Below the pieces are notes generated by a model, which had not been told where the DNA came from, made no database searches, and saw only the letters and a program-made list of their open reading frames with translations. A stretch of 64,000 nucleotides of DNA from Escherichia phage LF82-4, in sequence record PV660448; one strand, written 5' to 3'. Numbering within the stretch: position 1 is the first letter of the stretch; every line of letters begins with the position of its first letter. Of the stretch, positions 1 through 38,695 are shown piece by piece. The position numbers and the translations under genes are program-made.

Positions 1-259
1 GGCCACGCACAAAATCAATCTTACAATCAGAACCGTTGACGAACATCATTTCGGCATTGATATCATTACATAATGCTTTTGCTACGGTTGTTTTACCTGT
101 ACCAGGAGAAGGAGAGTGCAAAATAATATGAGGAAGTTTTCCTTTAGATACTAAAGACTTGAATGTTTCATGGTCATACGCAGGCAGAATACATTCGTCA
201 ATGGAAGAAGGACGATATTTCTGTTCTAGAATGTGTTCTTTGGAATTGATAGTAATCAT
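1..259 (-). CDS. 44: clamp loader subunit gp44, N-terminal part (gene continues beyond window start)
   Basis: Minus-strand translation from ATG at 259-257 reads MITINSKEHILEQKYRPSSIDECILPAYDHETFKSL...SPGTGKTT (Walker A); lies directly downstream of gene 45 as in T4. Confidence 0.85.
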   Translation of the reverse strand, partial: MITINSKEHILEQKYRPSSIDECILPAYDHETFKSLVSKGKLPHIILHSPSPGTGKTTVAKALCNDINAEMMFVNGSDCKIDFVRG

Positions 260-334
260 GTAATTTTCCTCATTATCATTAAACTGGAGGATTTCTCCTC
301 CATAATCGTACTACATTAAACGTAAAGCTTTGAC

Positions 335-1021
335 TTAGAAGTCGTGAGTAGAATCGGCTTCCATTGCAATAACATAACTTACTTGAGAGCTTTCAAACTT
401 GGCTGCAACTTTATCACCAGCTCCCCACAACATTACTTTATAGTTACCTGGCTGGATTTTCATATTAGCCATATTGATTACGAAGTTAAAGTTGTTAGAA
501 CCATCATAATCGGTAAGAGTCAAAGAATACTTAGGACGAGTTAGACCAGAATCTTCAACTTTATTATAGCCATTGATAACAATTTTACCATCTTTATTTG
601 TAATAGCAATTGTATCAATCTGAAGACCACGTGAAACTCGAAGCAATTGTTGAAGGTCTTCAGCTTTAATTTCAGTAATCACAGAAGCCACTGGGAATTG
701 AATTGGCTTATTAGGAAAAACAATGGTGCTCTTGTCGGCAGCAGGCCAATAAACTGTGGAACGTGTGTCCGCAATTTTAATATTGCCATCAGTGTGCATT
801 GAAATTTCAGCATCGTCAGACACTAGACTCAAAATGCTTAAGAAGCTATTCAAATCATAAAGTGCTACGTCAAAATCAATTTCATCAGAGATATTTGCTT
901 CCGCATAAGTGGTGCCATTAACTGCACGAGTCATAATAAATTTACCTTGACTCAGCAGAATGCCGGAGTTAATAGAGGCAAAGTTTTTCAGAATAGCGAT
1001 AGTATCTTTAGACAGTTTCAT
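335..1021 (-). CDS. 45: sliding clamp gp45
   Basis: ORF track 335..1036; start moved to ATG 1021 (MKLSKDT...) preceded by AAGGAAA RBS; sequence and C-terminus ...EADSTHDF match T4 gp45 from memory, 228 aa. Confidence 0.9.
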   Translation of the reverse strand: MKLSKDTIAILKNFASINSGILLSQGKFIMTRAVNGTTYAEANISDEIDFDVALYDLNSFLSILSLVSDDAEISMHTDGNIKIADTRSTVYWPAADKSTIVFPNKPIQFPVASVITEIKAEDLQQLLRVSRGLQIDTIAITNKDGKIVINGYNKVEDSGLTRPKYSLTLTDYDGSNNFNFVINMANMKIQPGNYKVMLWGAGDKVAAKFESSQVSYVIAMEADSTHDF

Positions 1022-1063
1022 TTTATTTCCTTTCAAGACAATTCAAAGTTTATAACAAATTTA

Positions 1064-1480
1064 TTATGCAGCAACCATCTGCTTTTTAATAGCTTCAGGC
1101 AGTGATTCAATATATTCTGGAATTTTAGAAGCAACAATTTCGCCAGCTGCAATTAATTGTTCATCGGCATCAACGCAGTAGAAATCTTCCAGGCGCTCAG
1201 AACCATCTTTATCAAGAACGATTTTTCCACCTGCTTCAATAGAATCTTTAAAGTGCTTACGCATCAGATGAATCCACATATCAGATACATCGTTATCAAT
1301 AAAACCATAAATCATAAAACGAGTTTCTTGTGGCAAAGATTGAAGCTTTTTAGCACTTGCGTCATCACAATGCAGGACCCATGCTTTACGAACACGATTA
1401 TGGTTATGCGGGTTAGCGTCAGTACGGATAGAAGTAACTTTCAGATCAGCAGCAGTGAAACCTTTAGCAGTAGTAAACAT
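1064..1480 (-). CDS. rpbA: RNA polymerase binding protein RpbA-like
   Basis: 138 aa ORF at the position between genes 45 and 46 where T4 has rpbA; assignment by synteny and size. Confidence 0.55.
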   Translation of the reverse strand: MFTTAKGFTAADLKVTSIRTDANPHNHNRVRKAWVLHCDDASAKKLQSLPQETRFMIYGFIDNDVSDMWIHLMRKHFKDSIEAGGKIVLDKDGSERLEDFYCVDADEQLIAAGEIVASKIPEYIESLPEAIKKQMVAA

Positions 1481-1492
1481 ATTATTTCTCTC

Positions 1493-1681
1493 TTATTCGT
1501 AGAAGTCAGTAACTGTCCATGCGGAATTGCGATTAGACATTATTTTATTATACTCATCTTTAAAAGCAGATTTGAGCATTTGTTCAGTAACAATATGTTC
1601 TTCACCTGAAAACGTATTGGTCAAAACATATTTTTTAATTTCAGGGACAACAAGAAGATGTTGTCCGGTTGAATACTCCAT
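1493..1681 (-). CDS. hypothetical protein (T4 45.2 position)
   Basis: ORF track 1493..1693; downstream ATG 1681 preferred because GGAG lies 6 nt upstream. Confidence 0.45.
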   Translation of the reverse strand: MEYSTGQHLLVVPEIKKYVLTNTFSGEEHIVTEQMLKSAFKDEYNKIMSNRNSAWTVTDFYE

Positions 1682-1735
1682 GTTGTTCTCCATTTAATTT
1701 GATGTGGTCATTATAACCACATCGTGTTAAAGCGT

Positions 1736-3424
1736 TTATGAAACAGTCATTACAGTAAATCGTCCAACTTTACTCATCTGAAGATGTTGTCCATAACGTT
1801 GAGGGTCATGGTCTCGATGAGAGATAATGAACACGTTAGTATTTTGTAAACTTCCAAGAATGGTATCTATAGCCTTAACAGCTTCAGAATCTACAGCGCC
1901 GTCAAAAACCTCATCAAGAATCAACGTGTTGATTTTAACACCAGAAACTTTTTCAGCAATATCTCGCCATGTAAACAACAATGCGATATCGATACGTGCC
2001 TTTTCACCTTGACTAAATGAAGCATAACTAAAATCTTCACGACCACGTGATTTTATAGATTCATTGAATTCTTCGTCAATAGAAAACACATAATCAGCTT
2101 CCATGATTTTAAGGTAATGGTTAATCTGCTTGTTGAACAGAGGCACATATTTTTTAATGATAGCACCTTTAATACCAGAATCTTTTAACATATCTGTTAT
2201 AATACCACGATGGTATTTTTCAAGAACGTTATCCGATTTTGTTTTAATGATTTTATCAAGTTCTTTTTGAAGCAAAGCTATCTCATCGGCATGGTCGATA
2301 AATTCCGCCGAGGCTTGTTCTATTGCAGCTTTAACTTTCTTAGCTTTATCAATAGTGGCAATCATTGCTTGTTTCTTGGTACGAATATCAGATGCAAGGT
2401 CCTGTTTAGTCTTAACATTAGCTCTATATTCGTCCACTAGGACACTCAGATTATCTCTGTGACAGGTAAGTTGCTCGAATGAGTGATTACATTCATGAAG
2501 CTTATCGGTAATCTTAGAGACAATAGGATCACCCTGGTGCAACTGTGATGCACAAGTAGGACATGTGCCACCGTCATGATACATCTTAATAACTTTGTTG
2601 TATGAGTCGATTTTAGATTTAATCAAGAATGCTTCTTGTCCTATCTTGTTGAATGCCTCAGTAGGGTCTTCATCAAGAACGATATTAAGTAGTCGCTCAT
2701 TAGCTTCTTCGATTTCCGCTTTTAATGAACGAGCTTCTTTGGCTAGGTCGTCATACATATTCTGTAGACGCGCTACATTATCACCAGATAATTTCTTTTG
2801 ACGTTCGATATTCTCGTTATAAATCTTAATTTGTTGGATAACACCATCTTTCTTAGCATCGAGAACTTGTCCCTGGGAATTAAGTTCTCGAACTTGAGAC
2901 TTATTGATTTTATCCATTTCAGCGAGTGTGCCGACTTCTAAAAGGTCTTCGACAAGTTTTCTACGAGCAGGGGTGCTAAGAGCCATGAAAGGGGTATACC
3001 CTGCCGTCCCAAGCACAACGATCTGTTTAAAAGACGCGTATGACATTCCGATGCTACGTTCAAATTCTTCTTGGAAGTCACGACTGCTGGCAGATTCATC
3101 GAGACGAACACCGTCAACGGAGATTTCGAAAATATTGGGCTTTTGGCCTCGTTTAATGAAGTATTTTTTATCATCGAATTCCATCCAAAGCTCAACTAAG
3201 AGCTCTTTCTTGTTCGTGCTATTAATGATTTGTCCTTTCTTAACATCACGAAATGGTTTACCGAAAAGTCCGAAAGTAATGGCTTCTAACATCGTAGATT
3301 TACCACCGCCATTTTTACCAGTGATTAATGTCTTTTGGACTTTATCTAATTGGATATCAATAGGATTCCCACCTACCGACATGATGTTTTGATAACGAAC
3401 ACGATTTAATTTAAATGATTTCAT
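1736..3424 (-). CDS. 46: recombination endonuclease subunit gp46 (Rad50/SbcC-like ATPase)
   Basis: 562 aa; N-terminal Walker A GKNGGGKST; long coiled-coil middle; C-terminal LILDEVFDG Walker B; synteny with gene 47. Confidence 0.9.
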   Translation of the reverse strand: MKSFKLNRVRYQNIMSVGGNPIDIQLDKVQKTLITGKNGGGKSTMLEAITFGLFGKPFRDVKKGQIINSTNKKELLVELWMEFDDKKYFIKRGQKPNIFEISVDGVRLDESASSRDFQEEFERSIGMSYASFKQIVVLGTAGYTPFMALSTPARRKLVEDLLEVGTLAEMDKINKSQVRELNSQGQVLDAKKDGVIQQIKIYNENIERQKKLSGDNVARLQNMYDDLAKEARSLKAEIEEANERLLNIVLDEDPTEAFNKIGQEAFLIKSKIDSYNKVIKMYHDGGTCPTCASQLHQGDPIVSKITDKLHECNHSFEQLTCHRDNLSVLVDEYRANVKTKQDLASDIRTKKQAMIATIDKAKKVKAAIEQASAEFIDHADEIALLQKELDKIIKTKSDNVLEKYHRGIITDMLKDSGIKGAIIKKYVPLFNKQINHYLKIMEADYVFSIDEEFNESIKSRGREDFSYASFSQGEKARIDIALLFTWRDIAEKVSGVKINTLILDEVFDGAVDSEAVKAIDTILGSLQNTNVFIISHRDHDPQRYGQHLQMSKVGRFTVMTVS

Positions 3425-3669
3425 ATGTATTCTCTTCGAATGAAGTCCTCTACATATTTTAACATGTCATCCCTATCAGCAAAATATTCATCTAGTTCTG
3501 CATACATAACAACACCTGGTGCGTACTCACAGGTAACATACATTGTTCCAAAGAAACGAGGAGTTGATTCCTCGTAATTCTCAGTCCATTCAACGATACC
3601 AATATAACCGTCACCAATACTAAATTCGTGACGATGGATTTCATAGTCAGTCTTCGTCATTATACGCAT
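3421..3669 (-). CDS. hypothetical protein (T4 46.1 position)
   Basis: 82 aa ORF, stop overlaps gene 46 start. Confidence 0.45.
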   Translation of the reverse strand: MRIMTKTDYEIHRHEFSIGDGYIGIVEWTENYEESTPRFFGTMYVTCEYAPGVVMYAELDEYFADRDDMLKYVEDFIRREYI

Positions 3670-3904
3670 CCTCGATACATGCTTCAGCCATTTTAAGAAT
3701 AGAGCCAGGAGTATCGTTGTCCATTATATTAAAGCTAAATTCAATAGCCCAGTCGGTACAGACATGAACGGCTTTAACTTCATTGCCTTCAACACGTAAT
3801 GGCTCAATCCAATACTTGATAGTGTTCTCGAATCCATCATCATCTTTAACGTCTATTTCAACTTCAAGCCCGAGCCCAGCATTGTTAAATTCATCTAAAG
3901 TCAT
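3647..3904 (-). CDS. hypothetical protein (T4 46.2 position)
   Basis: 85 aa acidic ORF between genes 47 and 46. Confidence 0.45.
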   Translation of the reverse strand: MTLDEFNNAGLGLEVEIDVKDDDGFENTIKYWIEPLRVEGNEVKAVHVCTDWAIEFSFNIMDNDTPGSILKMAEACIEDAYNDED

Positions 3905-4920
3905 TGTGTTGCCTCAATATAAAGTTCGTTAGAATATTTGACCAGCGCTTCTCTGTCTTCGTCTGAGATATCTGGAATCGCGTCAATATATTCTTTAATG
4001 ATATCTTGAAGTGATTTAATCTCGATTTCCTGGTCGTCATCAGATTCAACACTGTTATCAACTTTAGAAACCATACGAAGAGAGTGAACTACTTTTTCAA
4101 GTTCAGATTCAAACTTAGTCAACTCTGAATCAATTTCTGATACTATAACACGTACGGCTAGATTAGTATAATCAGAATAATTAATTTTGCCTTTAAACGG
4201 ATAAGTGATTCGTCGATGCCATGTTGTTTCATTAGGAATAAATTCCATACGTTCAACATCAGTGTCAAATACCCAGAATCCACGTGGGTCGTTCTCGTCA
4301 CCTGCAGTAAGGGTCCATGGTGTCCCAATATATTTGACGTTAGCAGCTTCAGAGATTGTGTGGAAGTGGCCAGACCAGACTTGTTTATAGGTCTTTAAGA
4401 AATCAGGTTCAAGCCCATGAGACTTCATTCCTTTATAGAAATAAAAGCCGTTCAGTTCCCAATGACCAACACAATACGCAGCAGAAGAAGTCTTGATGTG
4501 CTCTAAGATTTCACCTGTATTTTCTTCACACATCCATGGAATTAAATCAATCAGACACCCATCGAAATCAACAGTCGTAGGTTTATCATAAATAACAACA
4601 TTTTTACGATGAGACAAAAGCTCTTGGGTTGTATTAGGGTATAAAGTTGTCTTATAAAAAAGGTCGTGGTTACCCAAAATAGTGTTAACGGTTATTCCAG
4701 CGTTTTCAGCCATATCAAATAATTCACGAGTAAACTCCATACAACGTTGTGTTGTGTGAGCTCGTACATCAAATACGTCCCCGTACTGTATCCATGTTGT
4801 TATTCCATTTTTAACAGAATAATCCACCATTTGTTTGAATCCATGACGTTGGATGTTTTGAATCCACTCATCATCCTTTTTTACACCTAAGTGCAAATCG
4901 CCTACGTTAAGAATTTTCAT
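3901..4920 (-). CDS. 47: recombination endonuclease subunit gp47 (Mre11/SbcD-like phosphoesterase)
   Basis: Start at MKILNVGDLHLG (calcineurin-like phosphoesterase motifs GDLH, GNHD); 339 aa, same length as T4 gp47 from memory. Confidence 0.9.
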   Translation of the reverse strand: MKILNVGDLHLGVKKDDEWIQNIQRHGFKQMVDYSVKNGITTWIQYGDVFDVRAHTTQRCMEFTRELFDMAENAGITVNTILGNHDLFYKTTLYPNTTQELLSHRKNVVIYDKPTTVDFDGCLIDLIPWMCEENTGEILEHIKTSSAAYCVGHWELNGFYFYKGMKSHGLEPDFLKTYKQVWSGHFHTISEAANVKYIGTPWTLTAGDENDPRGFWVFDTDVERMEFIPNETTWHRRITYPFKGKINYSDYTNLAVRVIVSEIDSELTKFESELEKVVHSLRMVSKVDNSVESDDDQEIEIKSLQDIIKEYIDAIPDISDEDREALVKYSNELYIEATQ

Positions 4921-5722
4921 ATTGCACCTTAAATTTACCATAAATTATACTGTGATAACTTAAATCAGGAAAACCTTCTGCGACGGCTAAAGGTCTAAAC
5001 TTCTTAGGACTTATTCTACCACATTTTACCCAAAGAGCATATAGTGCTTCATAATATTCAAATAATGGTCCTTTACGAGCTTCAGAAACAGCTTTACGCA
5101 CTTTGTCCTTTATTGACGGGTCTAAATTTCTAAGGGTTTCACTAATTTTGTTTCGATGGGTTTCATTAATAAGATTTCCTTTAAGCCAGCCTTCGGGTTC
5201 AGTCCCTGGGACAAACATTTTCTTTTCTTTGCCATTATTATACCATTTGCGGCCTTTATTGTGACTAGAGGCTTTATATTCAGGAGAACGACCTTTTACA
5301 TTACCTTCAGGTATATAAGGTAGAAAACTTTGTTCTAACGTTTCAGGGTTGTATGAGTGTATATGGCCTTTACCATTATGTGAGCCGTACAATGGGTGCT
5401 CTTCTTTTGGAAGTGATAATCCGAAAAATCCTTTAGGAGCAGCAATTGCTTTATTCATATACATCGGGTTATTGGCAGCATCCACCTTTAGTTGGAGTAA
5501 ACGTTCAGCTTTTGTCGCTTCTTCTCTCGTGGCGTGTTCACTTACAATACATGAATCAAAAAGGTGTGGATTCATTTTTAGTTCAGAATTGTAAATTTCC
5601 TTATATGCTTTTGATAAAACCGTTCCGTGATATCCAGCTTTATGCTTTGCAATACTTGTAGAACCTATATAAAACGGTGGAAGTTTGTCACCATCATAAA
5701 TCGTAAAATATACTATGTACAT
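4907..5722 (-). CDS. putative GIY-YIG family endonuclease (Seg-like homing endonuclease)
   Basis: N-terminus MYIVYFTIYDG...PFYIGSTS resembles the GIY...YIG motif; downstream basic repeats (THRNKISETLRNL) resemble NUMOD-type DNA-binding modules; GGAG RBS before ATG 5722; overlaps gene 47 start by 14 nt. Confidence 0.5.
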   Translation of the reverse strand: MYIVYFTIYDGDKLPPFYIGSTSIAKHKAGYHGTVLSKAYKEIYNSELKMNPHLFDSCIVSEHATREEATKAERLLQLKVDAANNPMYMNKAIAAPKGFFGLSLPKEEHPLYGSHNGKGHIHSYNPETLEQSFLPYIPEGNVKGRSPEYKASSHNKGRKWYNNGKEKKMFVPGTEPEGWLKGNLINETHRNKISETLRNLDPSIKDKVRKAVSEARKGPLFEYYEALYALWVKCGRISPKKFRPLAVAEGFPDLSYHSIIYGKFKVQYENS

Positions 5723-5748
5723 GTTATTCTCCATTTTGTATAGAAATT

Positions 5749-5778
5749 ACTATATCATAGTTTATACTGTTTGTAAAC
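5749..5778 (-). promoter_or_regulatory. early sigma70-type promoter (GTTTACA -17- TATAGT)
   Basis: Minus strand GTTTACA at 5778-5772 and TATAGT at 5754-5749 with 17-nt spacer, upstream of GIY-YIG ORF. Confidence 0.5.
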
Positions 5779-5780
5779 CC

Positions 5781-5811
5781 TAGAAACGGAAAAGGAACTC
5801 CGAAGAGTTCC
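5781..5811 (-). terminator. intrinsic terminator-like hairpin
   Basis: GGAACTC-CGAA-GAGTTCC stem-loop followed on minus strand by U-rich tract. Confidence 0.45.
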
Positions 5812-6023
5812 TATCCACATAGTACACCGTACAGAGGCTCATTTGAACTTTTAAATCGAATGGGCTTGTACGTAATAGTTCCTTCGGCTTTAGCTTTATC
5901 ATAAGACTCTTTAAAACGTCTCATTCTTTCTGCTTTGCCTTTACGGATTTTATCGAAATTTTCAGAAGTCGGGATGTTCGTCATGCATAAGCACCTCTCA
6001 GAAAATGCCTAAATCGATTTCTC

Positions 6024-6245
6024 TCATCGTTTCCACCATTTCTTAACTTGAAATGAATCGACCCACACGAGTTGTTTTGGGTCTGCCTTTACAATAGGCG
6101 GACAAATTTCTGTAATAGAACCGTCGTGATATTCCTTTTCGGAAATTTTAACACAAAGAGGACCTCCCAATTTAAGGGAGAACCCTGCGTTCAGCTTCAG
6201 ACGTTTAAACTTTGTTTGAACTAGCGCCATTAATGATGTCCTCAA
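6024..6245 (-). CDS. hypothetical protein
   Basis: 73 aa ORF from track; overlaps next ORF, start uncertain. Confidence 0.3.
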   Translation of the reverse strand: MRTSLMALVQTKFKRLKLNAGFSLKLGGPLCVKISEKEYHDGSITEICPPIVKADPKQLVWVDSFQVKKWWKR

Positions 6246-6528
6246 TAGCCTGACGAGTAGTAATCCACTGGATTTTAATTAACTTGTCATTGTATGGTTG
6301 TCGTAGAATATCCCGAGATTTCTTAATAGCATATTCGTAAGCTTCGAAGTTGTTTTGAATTGCTGCTTCTTGAGCATGTGCATAAAGACGGTTTAGTTCA
6401 AAACGATTCTTTTTAAGAATCTTTTCGGATTTTTTACGTGCTTCAGCTTCATTTTTCTTTTGGATTTCTTGTAGCATTTTAGCTACTGCATCTTCTGCTT
6501 CTTTATTTTCAATAATCTCGGTAGTCAT
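6205..6528 (-). CDS. hypothetical protein
   Basis: 107 aa ORF, charged helical composition. Confidence 0.45.
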   Translation of the reverse strand: MTTEIIENKEAEDAVAKMLQEIQKKNEAEARKKSEKILKKNRFELNRLYAHAQEAAIQNNFEAYEYAIKKSRDILRQPYNDKLIKIQWITTRQAIEDIINGASSNKV

Positions 6529-6529
6529 A

Positions 6530-6745
6530 TTATCTCATTAAATTAAAATAAAAACGTCCATCCTCTTCAATACAGAACTCGTACTCAACTGGAGTCCCAT
6601 TTATTGAAAATGACACGTCATGTGGGTTCAAAGGGTCGATGTCAAAATTAATTTTAAATTCACGACCCAACAGTTTTACCAAATAAGGGATTGCTTCGTC
6701 AAAAGGTTCTTCTAAGTAGTTAGAGATGTCAATTGTCATCCTCAT
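6530..6745 (-). CDS. hypothetical protein
   Basis: ORF track 6530..6823 overlaps gene 55 end; truncated to internal ATG 6745 ([10 protein letters not shown]...). Confidence 0.35.
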
Positions 6746-7286
6746 ATAAAAAATCCAAACTAGGCGAATCGCTAACAACTTCCTTCTTTTCAGCCCCAGG
6801 AGCTTTATAAGCGGATTCTTCATAATGCGTCATTTTATCGTAGATGTCTTGAATAAACGTTTCATCTACCAACGCTACCATATCATCGTCATGACTGTCG
6901 TAGACATTATGAACGAAGTAACTATATTTCTTTGCAACTTCCTTACGTTCTTTTTTGATACGTTGGACAAAAGCATTAAAACAAGCTCGAGTTATGTATG
7001 CATGTGGGTTATTGTACTTAGTTTCGTCGAAATTATGAAGTCCCTTAATAGAGGCTTCAATCCCATCTGCAATCATCTCCTGCTTCCAAGACTGGGTATA
7101 TCCTGAAAAGTTGAAACGTTTGGACAGGCCTTCGGCGATAAGCATAATTGCTAAACCGATGGTATCATTCTGACGAATAATTTTGTTTGGGTCTTTATTA
7201 TTTAAGAGCTCCTTTTTCCACTCGATTATAGCGGCGAGAAGCTCTTTATTATTCACATAGTTATTTTTAGGTTTTTGTTCAGTCAT
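6729..7286 (-). CDS. 55: late-transcription sigma factor gp55
   Basis: Start at [17 protein letters not shown] with AAGAGGT RBS; 185 aa; sequence matches T4 gp55 from memory. Confidence 0.9.
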
Positions 7287-7358
7287 AAGTACCTCTTGGC
7301 TCAATTCATAGGTCTATTATATCATAATATTTAGAGACCTATCTTAAAGCACGAGATA

Positions 7359-7628
7359 CTATCGGAGCAAACAATAAGCCTGGAATACTTTTTCCATTAA
7401 ACGTTTGAACTCATGGATATCGATATAAAGCTCGGTTAATCCAGCTCCATAAAGAAAATCTAAAAAGTTCTCATGTGTTTCGTTATAGTCGCCTTCGTTT
7501 AATTGAGATACATGAGTTTCCCAAAAACCGACACCTTTAACAAATGGAAAATACGTAACTTTCATAAAGTTGTCGACGTAAAATTCGCCCAGCTTTTCTT
7601 CAGTTATACTGATTCGAGTTAATTTCAT
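7359..7628 (-). CDS. hypothetical protein
   Basis: 89 aa ORF, compact operon spacing. Confidence 0.45.
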   Translation of the reverse strand: MKLTRISITEEKLGEFYVDNFMKVTYFPFVKGVGFWETHVSQLNEGDYNETHENFLDFLYGAGLTELYIDIHEFKRLMEKVFQAYCLLR

Positions 7629-7852
7629 TCTAGTTCCTTTGCTGCAAATAAGGCAGCATCCAATGAATCAAATTGGTCAACGAAATCAATATTCAACGCA
7701 TCGTCAACCGTAGCATATAACCACCATTGTTTGAATTCGTATTCTAGAATAAATCCAGGACCTTCAATCTGAGGAAGACCTAGGCTATTTGTACCAACTT
7801 CGTAACCAGCTAGACGCAGGTCATTAATCAAAGTTTCTGTTAATACGCTCAT
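7625..7852 (-). CDS. hypothetical protein
   Basis: 75 aa acidic ORF, stop/start overlap with neighbours. Confidence 0.45.
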   Translation of the reverse strand: MSVLTETLINDLRLAGYEVGTNSLGLPQIEGPGFILEYEFKQWWLYATVDDALNIDFVDQFDSLDAALFAAKELE

Positions 7853-8181
7853 TTTGCCGCCTTAACAATTTTCAGGTCAACGAATTTTTTCTTACGTTGA
7901 TTTTTCATACGACGGATAGTCTTTTCAGAGATTTCATGTTTCTGATAAGCTTTAGATTCAACACCAAATGCAGCAACGTCAAATTCAGAAAGAATATATT
8001 GTACTAGAATTTCACGAATAGAATTACGTCCAATTTTCTGGTCGTGTTTTTGCATGATTTCATAAAGACGGAATTCCCACGCGTCAAGAACTTGAGGAGT
8101 AACAATACCACCTTTTTCTAGAAGACTAACAACTTTATCGAAAGCGAAAGAGTTCACTACGTTTTTGATTTTAGTAGACAT
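7849..8181 (-). CDS. hypothetical protein
   Basis: ORF track 7849..8220; start moved to ATG 8181 (MSTKIKN) because the upstream ATG lies inside the promoter -10 region; GAGGAAA RBS. Confidence 0.5.
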   Translation of the reverse strand: MSTKIKNVVNSFAFDKVVSLLEKGGIVTPQVLDAWEFRLYEIMQKHDQKIGRNSIREILVQYILSEFDVAAFGVESKAYQKHEISEKTIRRMKNQRKKKFVDLKIVKAAK

Positions 8182-8199
8182 ATTATTTTCCTCTGTTAT

Positions 8200-8244
8200 T
8201 TTATTATCCAACGAGAGCATTATACTCTGCTCTCAAGAGTTTGT
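8200..8244. repeat. 45-nt exact repeat, copy 1 (promoter cassette)
   Basis: TTTATTATCCAACGAGAGCATTATACTCTGCTCTCAAGAGTTTGT identical at 8200..8244 and 38143..38187. Confidence 0.9.
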
Positions 8245-11182: not shown

Positions 11183-12996
11183 TGGTGTTTAACCCTATGC
11201 ATGATTTCTTTATTTTTGCCGAGATTAAATCCACGTTCGTTCGGGTTCCCCAAATAACCGCACGTTCTTCTTATGGTGTTCATCTTTTTAGGATCAGTTT
11301 CTCCACAAACTGAACAAACAAATCCATTTTCAGTAGGAGTCATCTCATGGGTACTTCCACACGTAAAACATTTATCTACTGGCATGTTAACACCAAAATA
11401 ATCTAAATGTTGTGCAGCATAATCCCACACGGCCTCAAGACCTTTTAAGTTATTTTTCATATCAGGAAGTTCAACATAAGAAATGTGACCACCTGTCGCA
11501 ATGAAATGATATGGCGCTTCACGAGAAATCTTTTCAAACGGAGTAATATTTTCTTCTACTGAAACATGGAAACTATTAGTGTACCAGCCTTTATCAGTAA
11601 CATCCTTTACACTTCCATATTTTTCTGTATCAAGTTTACAGAAGCGATAACAAAGGTTTTCAGCAGGAGTAGAATACAAGCTAAAAGCAAATCCGGTTCT
11701 TTCAGTCCACTGTTTAAGACGAGCATTCATTTTAGTTAAAATTTCTTGCCCAATATCACGACCGACAAGAATATTCAATTCGTGAATACCAATGTATCCT
11801 AAAGACACTGAACTTCTACCGTTTTTAAATAACTCAATTATGTCGTCATCAGGTTTAAGACGAACCCCGAATGCACCTTCTTGGTAAAGAATAGGAGCAA
11901 CAGTCGCTTTAACACCCTTTAAAGAACTAATTCTACACATCAAGGCTTCAAAACACAGATCCATTCGTTCATTAAATAATTCGATAAATTTCTGTTCATT
12001 GAACTGTGTTCCAATATAAGAATCTAATGCGATACGAGGAAGATTCAGTGTTACAACACCAAGATTATTACGTCCATCAAGAATTTCATTACCAGTCGAA
12101 TCTTTCCATACGCTCAAGAAACTACGGCAGCCCATTGGAGAAACTGGAACTGAAGAACCGGTAATAGCTTTATTATTCTTAACAGAAATAATGTCAGGAT
12201 ACATTCTTTTGCTTGCACATTCTAACGCAAGTTGTTTAATATCATAGTTCGGATCATCTTTATAAAGATTAACACCTTCTTCAACAAACATAACAAGTTT
12301 AGGAAAAATAGGAGTTATTCCATCACGACCAAGACCTTTAATCCGATTTTTCAGAATTGCCTTCTGAATCATTCGTTCAGTCCAATCGGTTCCCGTACCA
12401 AATGTAATTGTTACAAAAGGCGTTTGTCCGTTTGAACTAAAGAGAGTATTTACTTCATATTCATAAGCTTGGAACGCATCGTATACGTCTTTTTCTGTTT
12501 TAGATTGGGCATAATTCAACGCATCAGCGATTTGCCATTTTTCTGCATCCTCAATATGTTTTGCATAGGTGCGTTTAACATAAGGAGAAAGAACTTTATC
12601 GACATTCGCAAATGTAGTTCCGCCATACTGATGTGAAGCAACTTGTGCAGTAATTTGTGCCATAATTGCAGTAGCAACACCAATCGATTTAGGCGTTTCA
12701 ATTTGAGCATTGCCTAATTTAAATCCATTCTCAAGCATCCCCTTTAAATCGACTAAACAGCAATTAGTAAATGGAAGAGCAGGAGAATAATCAATATCAT
12801 GCATATGAATGATTCCGCTTTCATGCGCATTCATAATAAAAGACGGGACCATATTTTTGGCAATGTGCTTAGACACAATACCAGCCATAAGGTCCCGTTG
12901 AGTTGGAAAAACACGAGAATCTTTATTAGCATTCTCGTTCAAAAGATCTTTATTAGTTTTATAAATTAATCCTTCAATTTCTTTTTCAATTTTCAT
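11179..12996 (-). CDS. nrdD: anaerobic ribonucleoside-triphosphate reductase NrdD
   Basis: 605 aa; C-terminal glycyl-radical motif RRTCGYLG and Zn ribbon CFTCG...CSVCG; single uninterrupted ORF. Confidence 0.95.
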   Translation of the reverse strand: MKIEKEIEGLIYKTNKDLLNENANKDSRVFPTQRDLMAGIVSKHIAKNMVPSFIMNAHESGIIHMHDIDYSPALPFTNCCLVDLKGMLENGFKLGNAQIETPKSIGVATAIMAQITAQVASHQYGGTTFANVDKVLSPYVKRTYAKHIEDAEKWQIADALNYAQSKTEKDVYDAFQAYEYEVNTLFSSNGQTPFVTITFGTGTDWTERMIQKAILKNRIKGLGRDGITPIFPKLVMFVEEGVNLYKDDPNYDIKQLALECASKRMYPDIISVKNNKAITGSSVPVSPMGCRSFLSVWKDSTGNEILDGRNNLGVVTLNLPRIALDSYIGTQFNEQKFIELFNERMDLCFEALMCRISSLKGVKATVAPILYQEGAFGVRLKPDDDIIELFKNGRSSVSLGYIGIHELNILVGRDIGQEILTKMNARLKQWTERTGFAFSLYSTPAENLCYRFCKLDTEKYGSVKDVTDKGWYTNSFHVSVEENITPFEKISREAPYHFIATGGHISYVELPDMKNNLKGLEAVWDYAAQHLDYFGVNMPVDKCFTCGSTHEMTPTENGFVCSVCGETDPKKMNTIRRTCGYLGNPNERGFNLGKNKEIMHRVKHQ

Positions 12997-13466
12997 TTTA
13001 AACTCTTTCTAAGCTGCTTTTTGAATGAAGCTATTAATTGTGTTTTAGTATCAGATTCATTATATTCAAATCCTCTTTGAAGCATCTCGGTCATCATTTC
13101 CTCTTTACCTAGTCTTGAGAACTCTTTAGTTTTGTCTGGAACAAAATTAGGATGGATATTATTATCAGAATAATCTTGTTTCAAATAAGCAAGAAGAGCT
13201 TCAAGCCATTCGAGGTAGTCGACATCACGTCCTTTAAGACCGGAACGGTTGAACTTATGCTTCATTTGACCTTCTGCTGCGTTGCACAGATTACAGAGTA
13301 ATCCACGAACTCTACCGGCTTTTGGCCCGTTTAATTCATGGTCGTGGTCAAGATGGTTACCTTGAACATCAGGGTCTAATTCACGGTGGCAAATAGGACA
13401 CTTACCATTCTGTGCATCATAAAATTTTTGTTTTTCTTCTTTATATTTTGCGCCTGATAATAACAT
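12993..13466 (-). CDS. 49: endonuclease VII (Holliday junction resolvase) gp49
   Basis: 157 aa; MLLSGAKYKEEKQKFYDAQNGKCPIC...HLDHDHELNGPKAG... near-identical to T4 endo VII from memory. Confidence 0.95.
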   Translation of the reverse strand: MLLSGAKYKEEKQKFYDAQNGKCPICHRELDPDVQGNHLDHDHELNGPKAGRVRGLLCNLCNAAEGQMKHKFNRSGLKGRDVDYLEWLEALLAYLKQDYSDNNIHPNFVPDKTKEFSRLGKEEMMTEMLQRGFEYNESDTKTQLIASFKKQLRKSLK

Positions 13467-33188: not shown

Positions 33189-33269
33189 TAAGTAGGATGG
33201 ACATCCTGTCCAATCTACTGAATAGTACGAAATACCTTCATTACTTAGACCAATATGTTTTGTTAATCA

Positions 33270-33956
33270 TTACCAGCCTTCCATAGGGAATTCCAGATAA
33301 ACTTGAGCATTGACACGAATTTCATTGGTAATCTTTTTAACTCGGTCTGTATTACGAGATACACGTCCGAACCAACGCCATCCATTACTAATTGCACGAG
33401 AACCAGTGTGCCATGTTTGCCAATCAAACTGAAGAAGAGTACGGTCCGGAGCTTCCCATTTCTCTAGTTCACCTTTTTCAATTTTTTCGAGGACTTCTTT
33501 GTGCCATTGGCGATAGATAAGTTCGCCATCAGGAATCTGACTGAACTCTGCAGTTCCTGTTGCAAAATGAGTAGGACACACGTCAGCGTTAACAAGACCA
33601 AGAATATGTTCAGAATGGTAACGAGGGTTATCATAGTCAGGTTGTCCTGCAGTAATAAAGTGTTGGCCGACTGGAATATCAGGGCGAGGAACATCGTCAT
33701 GGTGATATCCAGGAATAGCAGGATACCAACCAGGCATCAGCATATGAACCCGAGAATCAAATACAACATGTTGATTAGTCCAATCAATTGGGAGATTGGC
33801 AATAAAGCTACGAGTAATAGGACCGCCGTTATCCCAAGCAAAACTCAAATCACAGTTAAAGAACATTGGTTCATTTTTGATTTGGTCATTTTGTACGTTA
33901 TGAGCAAAACCACCTACTGCGCGAGCTTGACTATTAAACACTTTAGAACTATTCAT
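33270..33956 (-). CDS. hypothetical protein (His/Asp-rich, possible metal-dependent enzyme)
   Basis: 228 aa; HHDD and later His residues plus R-x-S near C-terminus could form a 2-His-1-carboxylate site; speculative. Confidence 0.45.
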   Translation of the reverse strand: MNSSKVFNSQARAVGGFAHNVQNDQIKNEPMFFNCDLSFAWDNGGPITRSFIANLPIDWTNQHVVFDSRVHMLMPGWYPAIPGYHHDDVPRPDIPVGQHFITAGQPDYDNPRYHSEHILGLVNADVCPTHFATGTAEFSQIPDGELIYRQWHKEVLEKIEKGELEKWEAPDRTLLQFDWQTWHTGSRAISNGWRWFGRVSRNTDRVKKITNEIRVNAQVYLEFPMEGW

Positions 33957-33957
33957 A

Positions 33958-34263
33958 TTATTTTCCTCGACATTCTTTAATGAAATTTTCTAGATTGGTA
34001 GATTCAATAGCTTTTTTACGAGCTTCTGCATGTTCTTCTTCAGACAATTTACATTTATAATTAACCCAGACGTTATGGTCAAAACTAGTCGTGGCATATA
34101 ATAACAATGCTCCAACGAATAGCAAAAACGGCGATAAGAATACAAAACCAGGAACACCATCCATATCGTAAGCCTTTTGTAATACTGCAACAGAAAGGGC
34201 TGCGTAAAAAGGTGATGCAAATATTGTTAAAAGACCAATTCGGTTGGTTTCGCCTAATTTCAT
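33958..34263 (-). CDS. hypothetical membrane protein
   Basis: 101 aa, two hydrophobic helices; own early promoter upstream. Confidence 0.45.
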   Translation of the reverse strand: MKLGETNRIGLLTIFASPFYAALSVAVLQKAYDMDGVPGFVFLSPFLLFVGALLLYATTSFDHNVWVNYKCKLSEEEHAEARKKAIESTNLENFIKECRGK

Positions 34264-34292
34264 AATATTCTCCTCATGTTTTTAATAGGACT

Positions 34293-34322
34293 ACTATAAC
34301 ATAGTCCTATAATTGTGTAAAC
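34293..34322 (-). promoter_or_regulatory. early sigma70-type promoter with flanking inverted repeat
   Basis: Minus strand GTTTAC -18- TATAGT; arms ATAGGACT/AGTCCTAT around the -10. Confidence 0.5.
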
Positions 34323-34334
34323 AGTTTTGTGAAG

Positions 34335-35291
34335 TTATTTGAAAGGTTTTACCATATGGAAATTTTGTTTGAAACGTTTGACGTAATCATTTTTGCCGAG
34401 CTTATGATACATAGCCACTACTTCATAATAGTTCTCGTATGCGTACTCACGGAACCATCCGGAGGTGATGCTTGTACAGACTTTTTCCAATGCCATCATA
34501 AAACTGGCTTCAGGGTTAATTTTAAAGTTATTAGGAATCTGAGAACGTTCTAATGCTAATACACATGATTCTTCGTATACACCGGCCAATTTGACCATTT
34601 CTGGTAATGATTCGAACTTCTCGCGTGAGGTCATGACTTCAGAACCATCTTTCATATAAAATGTATACGCTGGACGGTCTGTTAGTGCAATGGCTTCATG
34701 AATAGTATCATGGTCATATGTATAGATGTCATCTTTAAAGAACGCACTTTTAGAAGTGTCAAGAACCGGGTGAGCATAGTTCAAAGTTTCTTTCTGGCGT
34801 TTCAACATAATTTCAGTAAGTTCATCGTTCAGTGTAACACCTTTACCACGAAGATACTGAATATGGTTCATAGTCTTTAAAAAGAATGGATTATTTTTCT
34901 TGAAACGATGAGACATCTTAATTGCAAGACATATCTCAGGAGTTGCCCAGTAAAACCCAGTCAAACGGTCTTTAGTCAAATTTTTCTTGGCGTATTTTAA
35001 AAGGTCATAAGAAGATGTGAAATCTTCAGGAGTGAGTTCACCGACTAATTCACGGACATTAGTGATTGCCGGAACAATATATGCTTCAAAATGAGTTTCA
35101 CGTCCATTATGGAAGCATTTGAAAACTTGGACATCAGGGTTATCTTGGTGAACATATACACCCATCATTTGATTTTTGAATACATTCCAAGAACCTTGGT
35201 CCGCAATAAAGTCCCAATCACTATTTTTGATAGCGCTAGAATCAATAAGGCCATGGTAGTGAAGTGCACGAGAACCAATAACTAACATCAT
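34335..35291 (-). CDS. hypothetical protein
   Basis: 318 aa; N-terminal IGSRALHYHG...SDWDFIAD weakly resembles a nucleotidyltransferase GS...DxD motif. Confidence 0.5.
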   Translation of the reverse strand: MMLVIGSRALHYHGLIDSSAIKNSDWDFIADQGSWNVFKNQMMGVYVHQDNPDVQVFKCFHNGRETHFEAYIVPAITNVRELVGELTPEDFTSSYDLLKYAKKNLTKDRLTGFYWATPEICLAIKMSHRFKKNNPFFLKTMNHIQYLRGKGVTLNDELTEIMLKRQKETLNYAHPVLDTSKSAFFKDDIYTYDHDTIHEAIALTDRPAYTFYMKDGSEVMTSREKFESLPEMVKLAGVYEESCVLALERSQIPNNFKINPEASFMMALEKVCTSITSGWFREYAYENYYEVVAMYHKLGKNDYVKRFKQNFHMVKPFK

Positions 35292-35316
35292 AATATTTTC
35301 CTCGAATTTAGATTAC

Positions 35317-35556
35317 TTAAATTTCGCGACATGCGATATTATATTCATCCCAGAGGTCGTCATGTGAAGCCTCTACCAATGGAACGATTGTACCATTTAT
35401 ATCTTCATTATAAGGGCAAATTGTACAGTGCGCATCTTCGAATCGGATGCCTTTGTGTTCAGATTTTTTATAACGCATATCGAATATCTTTGCAAACTTT
35501 TCACGAGTAATAGTTTTAGCAACTACTTCGGTTCCTATACTTTCGTAATAAACCAT
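35317..35556 (-). CDS. hypothetical cysteine-containing protein
   Basis: ORF track 35317..35568; ATG 35556 with GGAG RBS. Confidence 0.4.
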   Translation of the reverse strand: MVYYESIGTEVVAKTITREKFAKIFDMRYKKSEHKGIRFEDAHCTICPYNEDINGTIVPLVEASHDDLWDEYNIACREI

Positions 35557-35618
35557 TGTTGTCTCCATTTAATTTGATAGGACTACTATAACATAGCCCT
35601 ATCTTGTTGTAAACTGTT

Positions 35619-35816
35619 TTAGCAAGAATAACTAGATGATACCCAGCCTTGAACAGTGATACTATTGTGGGATAATGAGATCGCGTCCTGGAGATTCAGA
35701 CCTGCATTATCTTCAATCCACAATGTAACTTCTTCACGCTCTTCGGTTGCAATCTGGAACAGGTTTTCTAGAGCAGCTACGGCCGTACGTACAGCACAAT
35801 CTAATTCACGAGACAT
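35619..35816 (-). CDS. small protein, paralog family member 3 (C-terminal WVSSSYSC)
   Basis: 65 aa; shares C-terminal motif with two upstream ORFs. Confidence 0.45.
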   Translation of the reverse strand: MSRELDCAVRTAVAALENLFQIATEEREEVTLWIEDNAGLNLQDAISLSHNSITVQGWVSSSYSC

Positions 35817-35825
35817 ATGATTTCC

Positions 35826-36098
35826 TTAACAAGTGTGAGAAGATGCAACCCAACCACCAGTTTCGAGGCTCAGGTTGTAGTCGTATTGGTAAACGTCAGC
35901 CCATTCGGCATAACCGTTTTTTGTACAACGTTCAAGATCGGCTTTAAGATGTCCGGGTGAATGATAGGTTCCACCCATACCATAAGCTGGGTACAAGTTG
36001 AATGTTGTGTTTTGTTTATCAGCAATTTCTTTGGCAGCCTCAATAGCTGCATAGATTTTTGCTACAGCTTCAGCCAGTTCGGTTTGTTCTTTAGACAT
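35826..36098 (-). CDS. small protein, paralog family member 2 (C-terminal GGWVASSHTC)
   Basis: 90 aa; starts MSKEQ; shares architecture with 36108..36413. Confidence 0.5.
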   Translation of the reverse strand: MSKEQTELAEAVAKIYAAIEAAKEIADKQNTTFNLYPAYGMGGTYHSPGHLKADLERCTKNGYAEWADVYQYDYNLSLETGGWVASSHTC

Positions 36099-36107
36099 AA
36101 TGATTCC

Positions 36108-36413
36108 TTAGCACAACGCAGAAGATGAAACCCAAGCACCTTCAGTAATAACGTATCCATTACCTTCACGCTTAACATCGCCGCCATTATTTTCAATTTC
36201 ATCTTTCATCCACTGGGATACGATTTCACCCTTAGGATAATAAGTACGACCGCTACCATAATCACCTACAGAAAATGATACGGCATATTGGTCTGCGATC
36301 TTTGTTGCTTCTTCTTCGATACGTTCAGCTTGATTCAGAAGTTTATAAATTGCATCTGAAGCGGATTTGGCATCATTAAACTCTGGTACTTTAATTTCAA
36401 TAATCTTACTCAT
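36108..36413 (-). CDS. small protein, paralog family member 1 (C-terminal GAWVSSSALC)
   Basis: 101 aa; starts MSKII; early-type promoter just upstream. Confidence 0.5.
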   Translation of the reverse strand: MSKIIEIKVPEFNDAKSASDAIYKLLNQAERIEEEATKIADQYAVSFSVGDYGSGRTYYPKGEIVSQWMKDEIENNGGDVKREGNGYVITEGAWVSSSALC

Positions 36414-36511
36414 TTTCTACATTCCTTAATAAAGTTTTCGATTGTTTCATTTTCACGTTTAGCTAGGAGTTCATTATAACTAATCATTTGAGAAGCGTAA
36501 ACAGCATAAAT

Positions 36512-36934
36512 TCAGTTAAGGCTTTTGCATCTTATTTCCTTAACGAATTCCATAGCTTCTTCATATTCATACTTTTTAACAGCTTCATCATACTGAGCTT
36601 GGGCTTTTGCGCACTGAACTTTCCATTCTCTTAATCGGGCTCTGTGATGACGGCCTTGGTACCAATATCCCATCCAGTTAATAGGCATTAATAAAAATGG
36701 TACAATAAGTGGTGCGACGAACATTAATGAAAATGCTGCATCAGACGATATAACTTCACTAGAATCTAAAACGGCTCCTATAATCATAAAGATTAAAAAT
36801 GCTAAAGCTAAAATAGGGCCAAATAGTACTTCATTTGGGATTAATTTACGCTTGTATTCATACGCCCAGGGCTTACTTGGCATGTACAGGGTTGGCTTTG
36901 ACATATTCTCTACATTCCATAATAAATTGCTCAA
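36512..36934 (-). CDS. hypothetical membrane protein
   Basis: 140 aa, two or three transmembrane helices followed by charged tail. Confidence 0.45.
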   Translation of the reverse strand: MSNLLWNVENMSKPTLYMPSKPWAYEYKRKLIPNEVLFGPILALAFLIFMIIGAVLDSSEVISSDAAFSLMFVAPLIVPFLLMPINWMGYWYQGRHHRARLREWKVQCAKAQAQYDEAVKKYEYEEAMEFVKEIRCKSLN

Positions 36935-37475
36935 GGATTAAATTGTTAGTGAAATTAGGACTAACAACCATAGTTTCATAAAGCGCATCAATAGCACTTA
37001 AAGCATCAACTCTCTTAAGCAAAGGCTTGCCTTCATACATAGTTTCAGAATCGACGATTAACGTAAAGTAGTATTTTTTATTATCGACTAGAACTTCTGT
37101 ATCGATATAAAACATATTAGACCTCAGAAGCTTATCTCTAAAACCATAATAATCTTCAGAGCGTTCGCTGATATATTCCCATTCAGTGTTTAAACAACAA
37201 ACAGACCACGTAGGAGCAACGAAATCAGTGAATCTAATATCATAGTCTGCAACTAGTTTAGCAATAGCTCCGATATCATGAATCATAATACCTGGGGCTA
37301 ATAAAGATTTTCTGCTATGGCTAGCCGTTTTCTCAGTGGTTTCATAAGAAGACGACCAATACCATTTACGTCCGGTTGCAACATATCGTAATGAATCAAC
37401 TAAAGACGTAGGTGGATTTACCTTATCTCGGAACTCTTCGAACATTGAGTCAATATCATTATTTTGGTTTCGCAT
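36873..37475 (-). CDS. hypothetical protein
   Basis: ORF track 36873..37496; ATG 37475 with AAAGGAG RBS. Confidence 0.5.
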   Translation of the reverse strand: MRNQNNDIDSMFEEFRDKVNPPTSLVDSLRYVATGRKWYWSSSYETTEKTASHSRKSLLAPGIMIHDIGAIAKLVADYDIRFTDFVAPTWSVCCLNTEWEYISERSEDYYGFRDKLLRSNMFYIDTEVLVDNKKYYFTLIVDSETMYEGKPLLKRVDALSAIDALYETMVVSPNFTNNLILEQFIMECREYVKANPVHAK

Positions 37476-37524
37476 GTTAACTCCTTTATTATCCAAAAGG
37501 AGGACCGGAGTCCTCCGTATTATT

Positions 37525-38118
37525 TTATTTCAAAGAGTTAATATATTCTTGTACATCAGCAGAAGTGGTTTCGACACCGGCTGGAGTGCCATTGAACGTT
37601 TCAACACGAGTCAGAGTGTCTTCGATATCAACCTTAGTCAGTGCAGCGATTTCAATCACATCATCAGCCGTAGAGATACCAAGGGCATTGGCTGCTCGAG
37701 TTTCACGAATGTATTCGAGTTTGATTGCCAGGTTCTGACGAGCATCATCAAGTTCAACCACCTTACGAGCAATTTCAATTCGCATAGCGGCATACCCATC
37801 AGCTTTTGTATTAAGTTGTTCGGCAGTTCGACGATACAGAAGACCAAGCTTAGCATGCATGGTAACATCTTGTCCTTCAGCCAGGAGCTTACGAATTTCA
37901 CGTTCCTTAGAAGCGGCTTGCTTGTTCTTTTCATTAACAAGTTCGCGAATACGTTTTTCTTCATTAATAGATTTAACAGAAGCCGTTTTTAGTTCTTTGA
38001 TTTGGGTAATCAACTTATCTGCAGCTGCGTTATACTGTTCTTCGACAGTCAGATTTTTAGCCATAGCAGTACCCAGTTTAGTGCGGATGAATTCAACAAG
38101 TTTCTTCAGTGTGTTCAT
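37525..38118 (-). CDS. hypothetical coiled-coil protein (PspA-like composition)
   Basis: ORF track 37525..38133; ATG 38118; long heptad-repeat helices; driven by the duplicated 45-nt promoter cassette. Confidence 0.5.
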
Positions 38119-38142
38119 ATTATTACCTTTCAATTGGTGGTT

Positions 38143-38187
38143 TATTATCCAACGAGAGCATTATACTCTGCTCTCAAGAGTTTGTAA
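38143..38187. repeat. 45-nt exact repeat, copy 2 (promoter cassette)
   Basis: Identical to 8200..8244. Confidence 0.9.
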
Positions 38188-38191
38188 ATTA
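38162..38191 (-). promoter_or_regulatory. early-type promoter inside duplicated 45-nt cassette (copy 2)
   Basis: Minus strand ATTTACA -17- TATAAT; identical core to copy at 8200..8244. Confidence 0.5.
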
Positions 38192-38416
38192 TTTTTTAAT
38201 CAAATTGACATAAAACTTGGCATCTTCGGGGTGCATGCCTTCGCAGTATTCTTCAACCATGAACTTCTTAACAGCTTCATAAGGACCACTCAGATTAAGC
38301 TCAGTTGTCCAGAACTTGGAATCTTGTACTGAATCGATACGAACTTCAGGGTGACGGTTGCGAATAACTTCTTCTGTGTATTCATAATCAACGACATCAA
38401 TACTAACTTTAGCCAT
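38189..38416 (-). CDS. hypothetical protein
   Basis: 75 aa acidic ORF. Confidence 0.4.
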   Translation of the reverse strand: MAKVSIDVVDYEYTEEVIRNRHPEVRIDSVQDSKFWTTELNLSGPYEAVKKFMVEEYCEGMHPEDAKFYVNLIKK

Positions 38417-38645
38417 TTTGTTTTCCTCTTGATTTGATGTGATTACTATAACATAAACTTACTTAGATGTAAACTATTTCAACATCACCTTTAGCTGCTT
38501 TATAACCTTCGGCCCAAGATACAACAGAGTTTTTATCTGAGGATTCAAATTCAGGCATTGGACTTTCACCAATATTCACACAGTATGTTTCTTCATTTTC
38601 ATCGAACCAAATAATTAAAGTAGTCATTTTGTTTACTCCACTGTA

Positions 38646-38666
38646 GTTGATAAGTCTATAGTATCA
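38646..38666. repeat. 21-nt repeat, copy 1
   Basis: GTTGATAAGTCTATAGTATCA identical at 38646..38666 and 39018..39038, both in promoter regions. Confidence 0.85.
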
Positions 38667-38695
38667 CCATCCTTGGTGCTTGTACATCATTATTT

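Follow-up and report, generated by a model that had tools for sequence, protein, structure and literature searches.

The 64,000-nucleotide (nt) stretch of Escherichia phage LF82-4 analysed here (sequence record PV660448, hereafter the window) carries an open reading frame (ORF) of 271 codons plus stop on its minus strand (4907-5722), directly upstream of the recombination gene 47. This ORF very probably encodes a free-standing Seg-type homing endonuclease with a GIY-YIG nuclease domain, whose gene was acquired by homing together with the adjoining flank of gene 47, and the absence of an alpha-glucosyltransferase gene (alpha-gt) is very probably unrelated to it. A first-pass annotation, made from the sequence alone, had described a 271-amino acid (aa) ORF as the first gene after gene 47 and proposed a homing-endonuclease insertion. 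Both points withstood the analysis: near-identical phages without the gene provide a precise junction, and a diverged tract lies alongside it. Megablast assigns the window to the RB69-like genus Mosigvirus, ~146 records of which match it at 95-99% identity, and Escherichia phage LF82-1 served as the reference relative.

The predicted GIY-YIG catalytic domain occupies codons 1-98 (5429-5722, minus strand). In an AlphaFold2 model of the ORF (mean predicted local distance difference test score, pLDDT, 87.8), the N-terminus follows a beta-beta-alpha-alpha-beta-alpha order and forms a GIY-YIG-type catalytic domain, a three-stranded sheet flanked by helices. A fold search with this model returned the I-TevI catalytic domain as the top PDB matches. 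Among the 45 BFVD matches at E<=1e-3, those bearing a name were GIY-YIG, NUMOD, Seg-like, intron or unspecified (homing) endonucleases, or 'uncharacterized'. None of the 45 was called HNH, and no HNH structures appeared among the fold matches. At the profile level, an alignment of 38 homologous sequences was compared with T4 I-TevI, SegA-SegE and SegG together with a SegB-like gene of the window, and matched with an hhalign probability of 96.8% (E 2.5e-10; family residues 12-95 against I-TevI 10-95). The same alignment reached only 11% against the HNH proteins MobB to MobE. Thus, the GIY...YIG-like N-terminus noted in the first-pass annotation is confirmed by profile-profile comparison and by the model, and the comparison with Seg and Mob proteins that it had proposed came out on the Seg side, where SegG was also matched by BLASTP (E 7e-7).

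Within the catalytic block, residues T7, Y9, G11, Y18-I19-G20-S21, Y31, G33, E73 and N90 are invariant in the family. The GIY and YIG motifs, T7-I8-Y9 and Y18-I19-G20(-S21), lie on the first two strands and are identical in 38/38 homologues. The YIG of the ORF aligns with I-TevI Y17-V18-G19, with a tyrosine-to-tyrosine spacing of 9 residues compared to 11 in I-TevI. N90 aligns with the structural N90 of I-TevI, and E73 is offset from the catalytic E75 by at most one or two alignment positions. The intact ORF keeps all 17 residues that are invariant in the family, among them the proposed catalytic Y9, Y18, E73 and N90.

The ORF is assigned to PHROG 10820 (E 4e-75), a family labelled 'HNH endonuclease', and RefSeq annotations of the ECO4 (L007 2992-3615), QL01, fPS-90 and other homologues carry the same name; this label has spread to many phage records. 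On these grounds the ORF could be taken for an HNH endonuclease, as many GenBank and RefSeq records say, but we give this reading practically no credence, since it is refuted by fold and by profile (11% against MobB to MobE, compared to a 96.8% GIY-YIG match). For the same reason the comparisons indicate that the PHROG 10820 label is wrong and that the family is GIY-YIG, which corrects an annotation error present in many RefSeq records. An NCBIfam RelB match of the ORF (E 0.005) was taken to be noise. With ~1,050 cluster representatives (50% identity) at E<=1e-30, the nuclease subfamily is large, and the clade associated with gene 47 is small within it: only 3 of the 80 best IMG/VR loci with the nuclease domain adjoin gene 47. 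The 'KLPPFYIG' domain was seen in 161 IMG/VR contigs, with differing C-terminal regions.

Beyond the catalytic domain, codons 117-182 (5177-5374, minus strand) hold two Seg-type beta-hairpin modules, GKGHIHSYNPETLEQSFLPYIPEGNVKG and GRKWYNNGKEKKMFVPGTEPEGWLKG, found by motif search (G..W/H..N..P[ED]G..KG at aa 117-144 and 157-182). The model places strands at aa 121-134 and 159-170, and the same motif is found at the C-termini of T4 SegB and SegE. This region probably is a DNA-contacting linker. Codons 187-271 (4910-5164, minus strand) are predicted to form a helical domain that combines NUMOD3-like helices with a homeodomain/Myb-like helix-turn-helix. In the fold search this domain was similar to DNA-binding domains of the homeodomain type; it also resembles the SegA C-terminus, and presumably is a sequence-specific DNA-binding domain. 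The layout expected of a Seg-type endonuclease, namely a nuclease domain, a linker and a separate predicted DNA-binding domain, is therefore present. The NUMOD-like basic repeats of the first-pass annotation stood in part: the ORF gave no match to NUMOD3 (PF07460) or to any other NUMOD Pfam model, and the region instead holds the two hairpin modules, while NUMOD3 is matched in 15/38 homologues (best E 7e-30) in the equivalent linker region. By eye, the helices ETHRNKISETLRN and KDKVRKAVSEARKG of the ORF are NUMOD3-like.

The extent of the insertion was defined by blastn of the window against LF82-1, mar005P1 and MRostami-2023e. As judged by blastn and by the junction sequences, an 866-bp segment (4924-5789) has no counterpart in Mosigviruses lacking the endonuclease gene, and this cassette stands in place of 45 bp of LF82-1. 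Window positions 1-3600 show 0 differences from LF82-1 and positions 5790-33147 are 99.81% identical to it, so that presence and absence of the gene form a polymorphism at a precise intergenic site between collinear, near-identical genomes. The cassette was absent from all 706 matching phage records. An identical copy of the ORF (public protein P0001) was found only in the Logan assembly of SRR33571401, a contig which matches window 1-8229 at 100% and is probably the same phage. The best full-length protein match among 50,697 phage records, in the AV109 to AV118 group, reached 62% identity, and the best public protein other than P0001 69%. By this measure the ORF is a new allele, 62-69% identical to its nearest relatives, of an already known type of element. 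An imperfect 18-nt direct repeat (15/18) near the cassette ends (4936-4953 and 5753-5770) is probably due to chance, since its 3' copy encodes the conserved SYHSIIY motif. For phage therapy or typing of RB69-like phages, the insertion explains a local drop in identity between genomes that are otherwise 99.8% identical.

Gene 47 itself (3901-4920, minus strand) encodes an SbcD/Mre11-like recombination nuclease, identified by tblastn with T4 gp47 (76% aa identity over 339 aa), PHROG 100 and Pfam Metallophos. Its 5' segment, codons 1-127 (4541-4923, minus strand), stood out in the mismatch profile and change-point analysis: nt 1-379 carry 140 differences from LF82-1 (37%; 52/127 residues), whereas nt 380-1020 carry only 11 (twice the log-likelihood difference, 2dLL, 245 for the change point). 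This pattern indicates that the first ~380 nt of gene 47 are foreign and were inherited with the endonuclease gene, gene 47 now being a chimera. The catalytic motifs of its product are retained among the invariant columns. The divergence is one-sided and abuts the cassette, the other flank running for 27 kb at 99.8%. Free-standing endonuclease genes are known to home with co-conversion of flanking markers (PMC2988022). The same pattern is seen in Mosigvirus AV116, where another endonuclease allele (62% aa identity) adjoins its own diverged ~380-nt segment of gene 47. The diverged tract is thus consistent with co-conversion during homing, although it does not prove it, and would provide a natural example of an endonuclease gene arriving with ~380 nt of its essential neighbour to give a chimeric Mre11-like nuclease.

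Homologues of the ORF occupy the position directly upstream of gene 47 in Mosigvirus (AV116), Dhakavirus (IME08/QL01) and Tequatrovirus (ECO4 and many others), and the same position is occupied in Klebsiella phage KPV15 and in the metagenomic contig L010. This defines a homing site just 5' of gene 47 that is conserved among Mosigvirus, Dhakavirus and Tequatrovirus. Over the aligning parts, the gene 47-associated members are 55% (KPV15), 62% (AV116 and ECO4) and 68% (IME08/QL01) identical to the ORF; the range over aligned parts is 54-69%, and only the AV109 group aligns over the full length. In ECO4 the insertion coincides with the start codon of gene 47 and is flanked by two ATGAAAA copies; the endonuclease gene has a start that mimics the one of gene 47. 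Compared to T4, its nearest counterpart without the endonuclease gene, the ECO4 allele of gene 47 differs at nt 9, 10, 15 and 18 and next only at nt 124; the QL01 allele differs from that of L117, again the nearest one lacking the endonuclease gene, at nt 9, 12, 15 and 18. These clustered silent changes hint at part of a recognition or cleavage site at gene 47 nt 9-18. Some T-even genomes, QL01 (L018/L081) and vB_EcoM_005 (L017/L082), carry two subfamily members at different loci. In IME08, the annotated gp47 coding sequence overshoots by 84 nt and extends into the endonuclease gene, which itself carries no annotation.

The cassette brings its own candidate expression signals. A sigma-70/T4-early-type promoter was predicted at 5749-5777 (minus strand), reading (G)TTTACA, 17 nt and a TG-extended TATAGT (10/12 matches with TG in a consensus scan; -35 box GTTTAC), which would start transcription at about 5742, and the AV116 cassette has a like layout, a terminator followed by GTTTAC-N17-TATAAT. 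A Shine-Dalgarno sequence, GGAG, was read from the sequence at 5729-5732 (minus strand), 6 nt before the ATG at 5722. This ATG is likely the start codon, giving 271 aa, because of this site and of the matching gene call of P0001; the longest reading of the ORF (4907-5734, minus strand) would give 275 aa from an upstream ATG at 5734. No Rfam family, no late promoter (TATAAATA) and no MotA promoter were found in the cassette. Upstream, a terminator scan located the intrinsic terminator of a-gt.2 (5793-5812, minus strand), with an 8-bp stem, a TTCG loop and a T-run; the upstream junction of the cassette lies within this T-run, and homology to LF82-1 resumes at 5790. The 45 bp replaced in LF82-1 hold the gene 47 Shine-Dalgarno sequence and TTTGCTTTA-11-TAGAAT, which, from the T4 consensus, we take to be a MotA-type middle promoter. 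The IME08 endonuclease gene lies downstream of that same TTTGCTTTA-11-TAGAAT promoter. Since the insertion removed this promoter and Shine-Dalgarno sequence, gene 47 of the window phage presumably relies on transcription through the endonuclease gene and, for translation, on an AAGGTG site within the 3' end of that gene.

Several observations weigh against the homing-endonuclease reading. No clear counterpart of I-TevI R27 was identified, the candidates being K/R26 (37/38) and R66 (36/38); in the alignment, I-TevI segment 24-32 is an insertion relative to both the ORF and T4 SegA to SegE. The ORF falls below every Pfam, NCBIfam and PDB sequence threshold, in single-sequence as in profile searches, so that membership in the GIY-YIG class is founded on profile-profile and fold evidence. 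With Pfam PF01541 (GIY-YIG) the ORF gave no match at E<=1 and 18/38 homologues matched weakly (best E 4.7e-4), a sensitivity limit of one model given that the profile-profile and fold tests are positive. The cassette promoter is a consensus match only. Across genera, no nucleotide rule separated 49 gene 47 starts with and without an endonuclease gene; only within a genus were there clusters, at nt 9-18. MRostami-2023e, a Mosigvirus without the endonuclease gene, has also exchanged its 5' gene 47 segment, with 104 differences from L001 before nt 339 and 13 after (L003). Finally, all gene 47 breakpoints abut a very conserved block (PWMCEEN), and the tract boundary may therefore reflect ordinary homologous recombination.

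The last two points would be expected if the region had been reshuffled by ordinary homologous recombination between co-infecting T-even phages with no break by this endonuclease, the ORF being a passenger, either a formerly mobile gene, inactive or decaying by now, or one kept as a DNA-binding regulator. The MRostami-2023e breakpoint at nt 339, the conserved block that would favour crossovers, other mosaic patches in the window (for example 33249-39066 at 94%) and decayed or split homologues in KPV15, ESh34 and IME08, unannotated or in two pieces, all speak for this possibility, which we nevertheless hold to be rather unlikely. Against it, the ORF is intact, with 17/17 invariant residues and its own predicted promoter and ribosome-binding site. 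Recombination of this kind also fits poorly with a divergence that is strictly one-sided and abuts the cassette while 27 kb on the other side remain 99.8% identical, or with the recurrence of a like architecture around a different allele in AV116. Moreover, endonuclease-driven marker exclusion predicts exchanged tracts even where the gene is lacking (PMC2988022), and the MRostami-2023e segment could be such a footprint or the product of plain homologous recombination. As judged from these differences, the 5' part of gene 47 is exchanged within Mosigvirus in the manner of a cassette. The idea that the shared breakpoint around nt 380 marks the cleavage site was rejected as unproven: a similar breakpoint is present in a phage that has no endonuclease gene, and the block at this place is simply one of very high conservation.

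For acquisition by homing, the preferred reading, the following course can be proposed. By analogy with T4 SegA to SegG, the early-type promoter of the cassette would drive transcription of the endonuclease gene. During mixed infection, the enzyme would cut both strands of an allele without the gene, within the 5' part of gene 47 or close to it. After resection, the break would be repaired with the genome carrying the endonuclease gene as template, and the recipient would thereby gain both this gene and the adjoining stretch of gene 47. Cleavage activity, target site and current mobility of the ORF are inferred here from its characterized relatives. More tentatively, the gene 47 clade might be an uncharacterised Seg lineage, perhaps still active, that targets the gene 47 start across at least three T-even genera. 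Such a lineage would cause the catalytic N-terminal part of gp47 (~127 residues) to be swapped repeatedly, like a cassette, would leave marker-exclusion footprints even in phages that end up without the endonuclease gene, and would bring gene 47 under an early-type promoter in place of its MotA middle promoter. A selfish nuclease would then diversify and re-time the exonuclease thought to resect its own breaks.

The first-pass annotation had also placed the ORF at the site where T4 has alpha-gt and taken this as a sign of a different or absent glucosylation system, with consequences for restriction sensitivity. In T4 the order is 47, 47.1, alpha-gt, mobB, a-gt.2, and the insertion point in the window phage is the 5' edge of gene 47, corresponding to the 47.1 slot. 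In ECO4, 47.1 and alpha-gt are still intact upstream of the endonuclease gene. The ORF therefore does not replace alpha-gt, and the claim that it occupies the alpha-gt site was not upheld. Absence of alpha-gt from the window was confirmed: tblastn with T4 alpha-gt, beta-gt and gp42 gave chance-level matches only across the 64 kb (best E 0.012), and 47.1 was not found in the window either. That best match, to alpha-gt at 37209-37388, was treated as chance because it recurs in LF82-1 (E 0.042), in a conserved gene of unknown function. No glycosyltransferase domains were found in ten large ORFs of the nrdC-tk region.

The lack of alpha-gt is, however, a known trait of the genus Mosigvirus, independent of the ORF insertion: alpha-gt and beta-gt are also missing from relatives that do not carry the endonuclease gene. 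These relatives run directly from gene 47 to a-gt.2, and a search of the complete LF82-1 genome found neither alpha-gt nor beta-gt. The sole gp42 relative in LF82-1 is a 25%-identical thymidylate-synthase homologue. This genome has instead an RB69-type arabinose cluster between uvsX and gene 43 (thymidylate-kinase, glycosyltransferase, thymidylate-synthase homologue and arabinose-5-phosphate-isomerase genes) as well as an ORF003c-sized gene adjoining rIIA. A contig identical to the window (L009) extends leftwards past gene 43 into the arabinose cluster. It carries by the DNA polymerase gene a SIS-domain ORF (12703-13323) 99.98% identical to the LF82-1 arabinose 5-phosphate isomerase gene, which we regard as direct sequence evidence for the RB69-type sugar pathway in the window phage. 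Both the lack of alpha-gt and beta-gt and the arabinosylated cytosine derivative in RB69 have been published (PMC6024577; PMC13326640). The derivative was first described as arabinosyl-hydroxymethylcytosine (PMC6024577) and more recently as arabinosylated 5-hydroxycytosine, with gp48 and the gp45-55 cluster responsible for its synthesis (PMC13326640). A modification system other than glucosylation is thus true of the genus and already described, but it is not indicated by the ORF. The suggested bearing on restriction sensitivity does not follow either, the modification being the genus-typical arabinosylation pathway.

That the ORF might be a divergent DNA glycosyltransferase functionally replacing alpha-gt has in its favour only its position between gene 47 and a-gt.2 and a BLASTP match to alpha-gt at E 0.31. 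We consider the odds of this vanishingly small. The model and the fold searches gave no GT-A or GT-B (Rossmann) fold, relatives without the ORF have the same modification cluster and no alpha-gt, and ECO4 carries an ORF homologue and alpha-gt side by side. This identity is refuted.

The surrounding genes follow the T-even order on the minus strand: 45, 46, 47, the ORF, a-gt.2 to a-gt.5, 55, nrdG, nrdD. Gene 45 lies at 335-1036, gene 46 at 1736-3424 and gene 55 at 6729-7304. The ORF overlaps gene 47 by 14 nt, its stop codon lying inside the gene 47 start, and its 'KVQYENS' tail, which also ends several homologues, is encoded by the gene 47 start in another frame. The span first assigned to the element, 4907-5778, contains the ORF, but its end takes in the 5' untranslated region and the -35 box. 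Likewise, the small hypothetical ORFs reported to follow it are present and correspond to the conserved genes a-gt.2 to a-gt.5 (5811-6745, minus strand; DUF5486, DUF2654 and DUF5491).

Elsewhere in the window, the mosaic patch at 33249-39066 is 94.2% identical to LF82-1, compared to 99.8% in the neighbouring 27 kb. At the 39066/39085 junction, a 712-bp LF82-1 segment (L008 40492-41204) is missing, which holds a 208-aa hypothetical gene (L008 40537-41163). A second free-standing GIY-YIG gene at 39781-40449 (minus strand) is an orthologue of T4 SegB, to which it shows 76% aa identity. At this site 698 bp (39793-40490) face 82 bp with a tRNA-Arg gene in LF82-1; the window phage has the SegB-like endonuclease gene and lacks that tRNA-Arg at the same position. 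A tRNA-Met (40491-40562) adjoins the SegB-like gene.

Among known systems, the members of the PHROG 10820 gene 47 clade (AV109/AV116 WPK35584, IME08/QL01, ECO4 YP_010068296 and KPV15) share both family and site with the ORF. In contrast to it, the Tequatrovirus and Dhakavirus members are ~205 aa long and lack the C-terminal helical domain, and IME08 uses the resident MotA middle promoter where the ORF has its own early-type promoter. The best T4 match is SegG (gene 32.1, between 32 and 59), with 30% identity over the N-terminal 116 aa (E 7e-7). Both have an unusual version of the YIG motif, 'K(T/L)PP(Y/F)YIGS', and both are free-standing, intergenic and have a neighbour that acts in recombination or replication. 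For co-conversion from a cut made at a distance from the endonuclease gene, SegG is the textbook example (PMC2988022). The two differ in locus, in length (271 compared to 210 aa) and in their C-terminal regions, where the ORF has two hairpin modules followed by helices like those of SegA; cleavage by the ORF product would follow by analogy. SegA, between uvsX and beta-gt, matches weakly (N-terminus E 0.002; C-terminal helical domain E 1.8e-4). Its modular layout is alike, but identity is ~27%, the insertion site is different, and the Seg motif reads DG-YMGSG (Pfam-type) in SegA and G-YHGT in the ORF. I-TevI (td intron; PDB 1LN0/1MK0) is intron-encoded, whereas the ORF is free-standing and without the zinc finger, and the I-TevI helix with R27 and H31 is missing from the ORF as it is from T4 Seg proteins. 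Finally, T4 mobB, between alpha-gt and a-gt.2, is another selfish endonuclease gene in the same 47-to-55 interval; it has an unrelated HNH fold, a different exact site and no sequence similarity to the ORF. The occurrence of both mobB and the ORF here marks the interval as a hot spot for selfish endonuclease genes.

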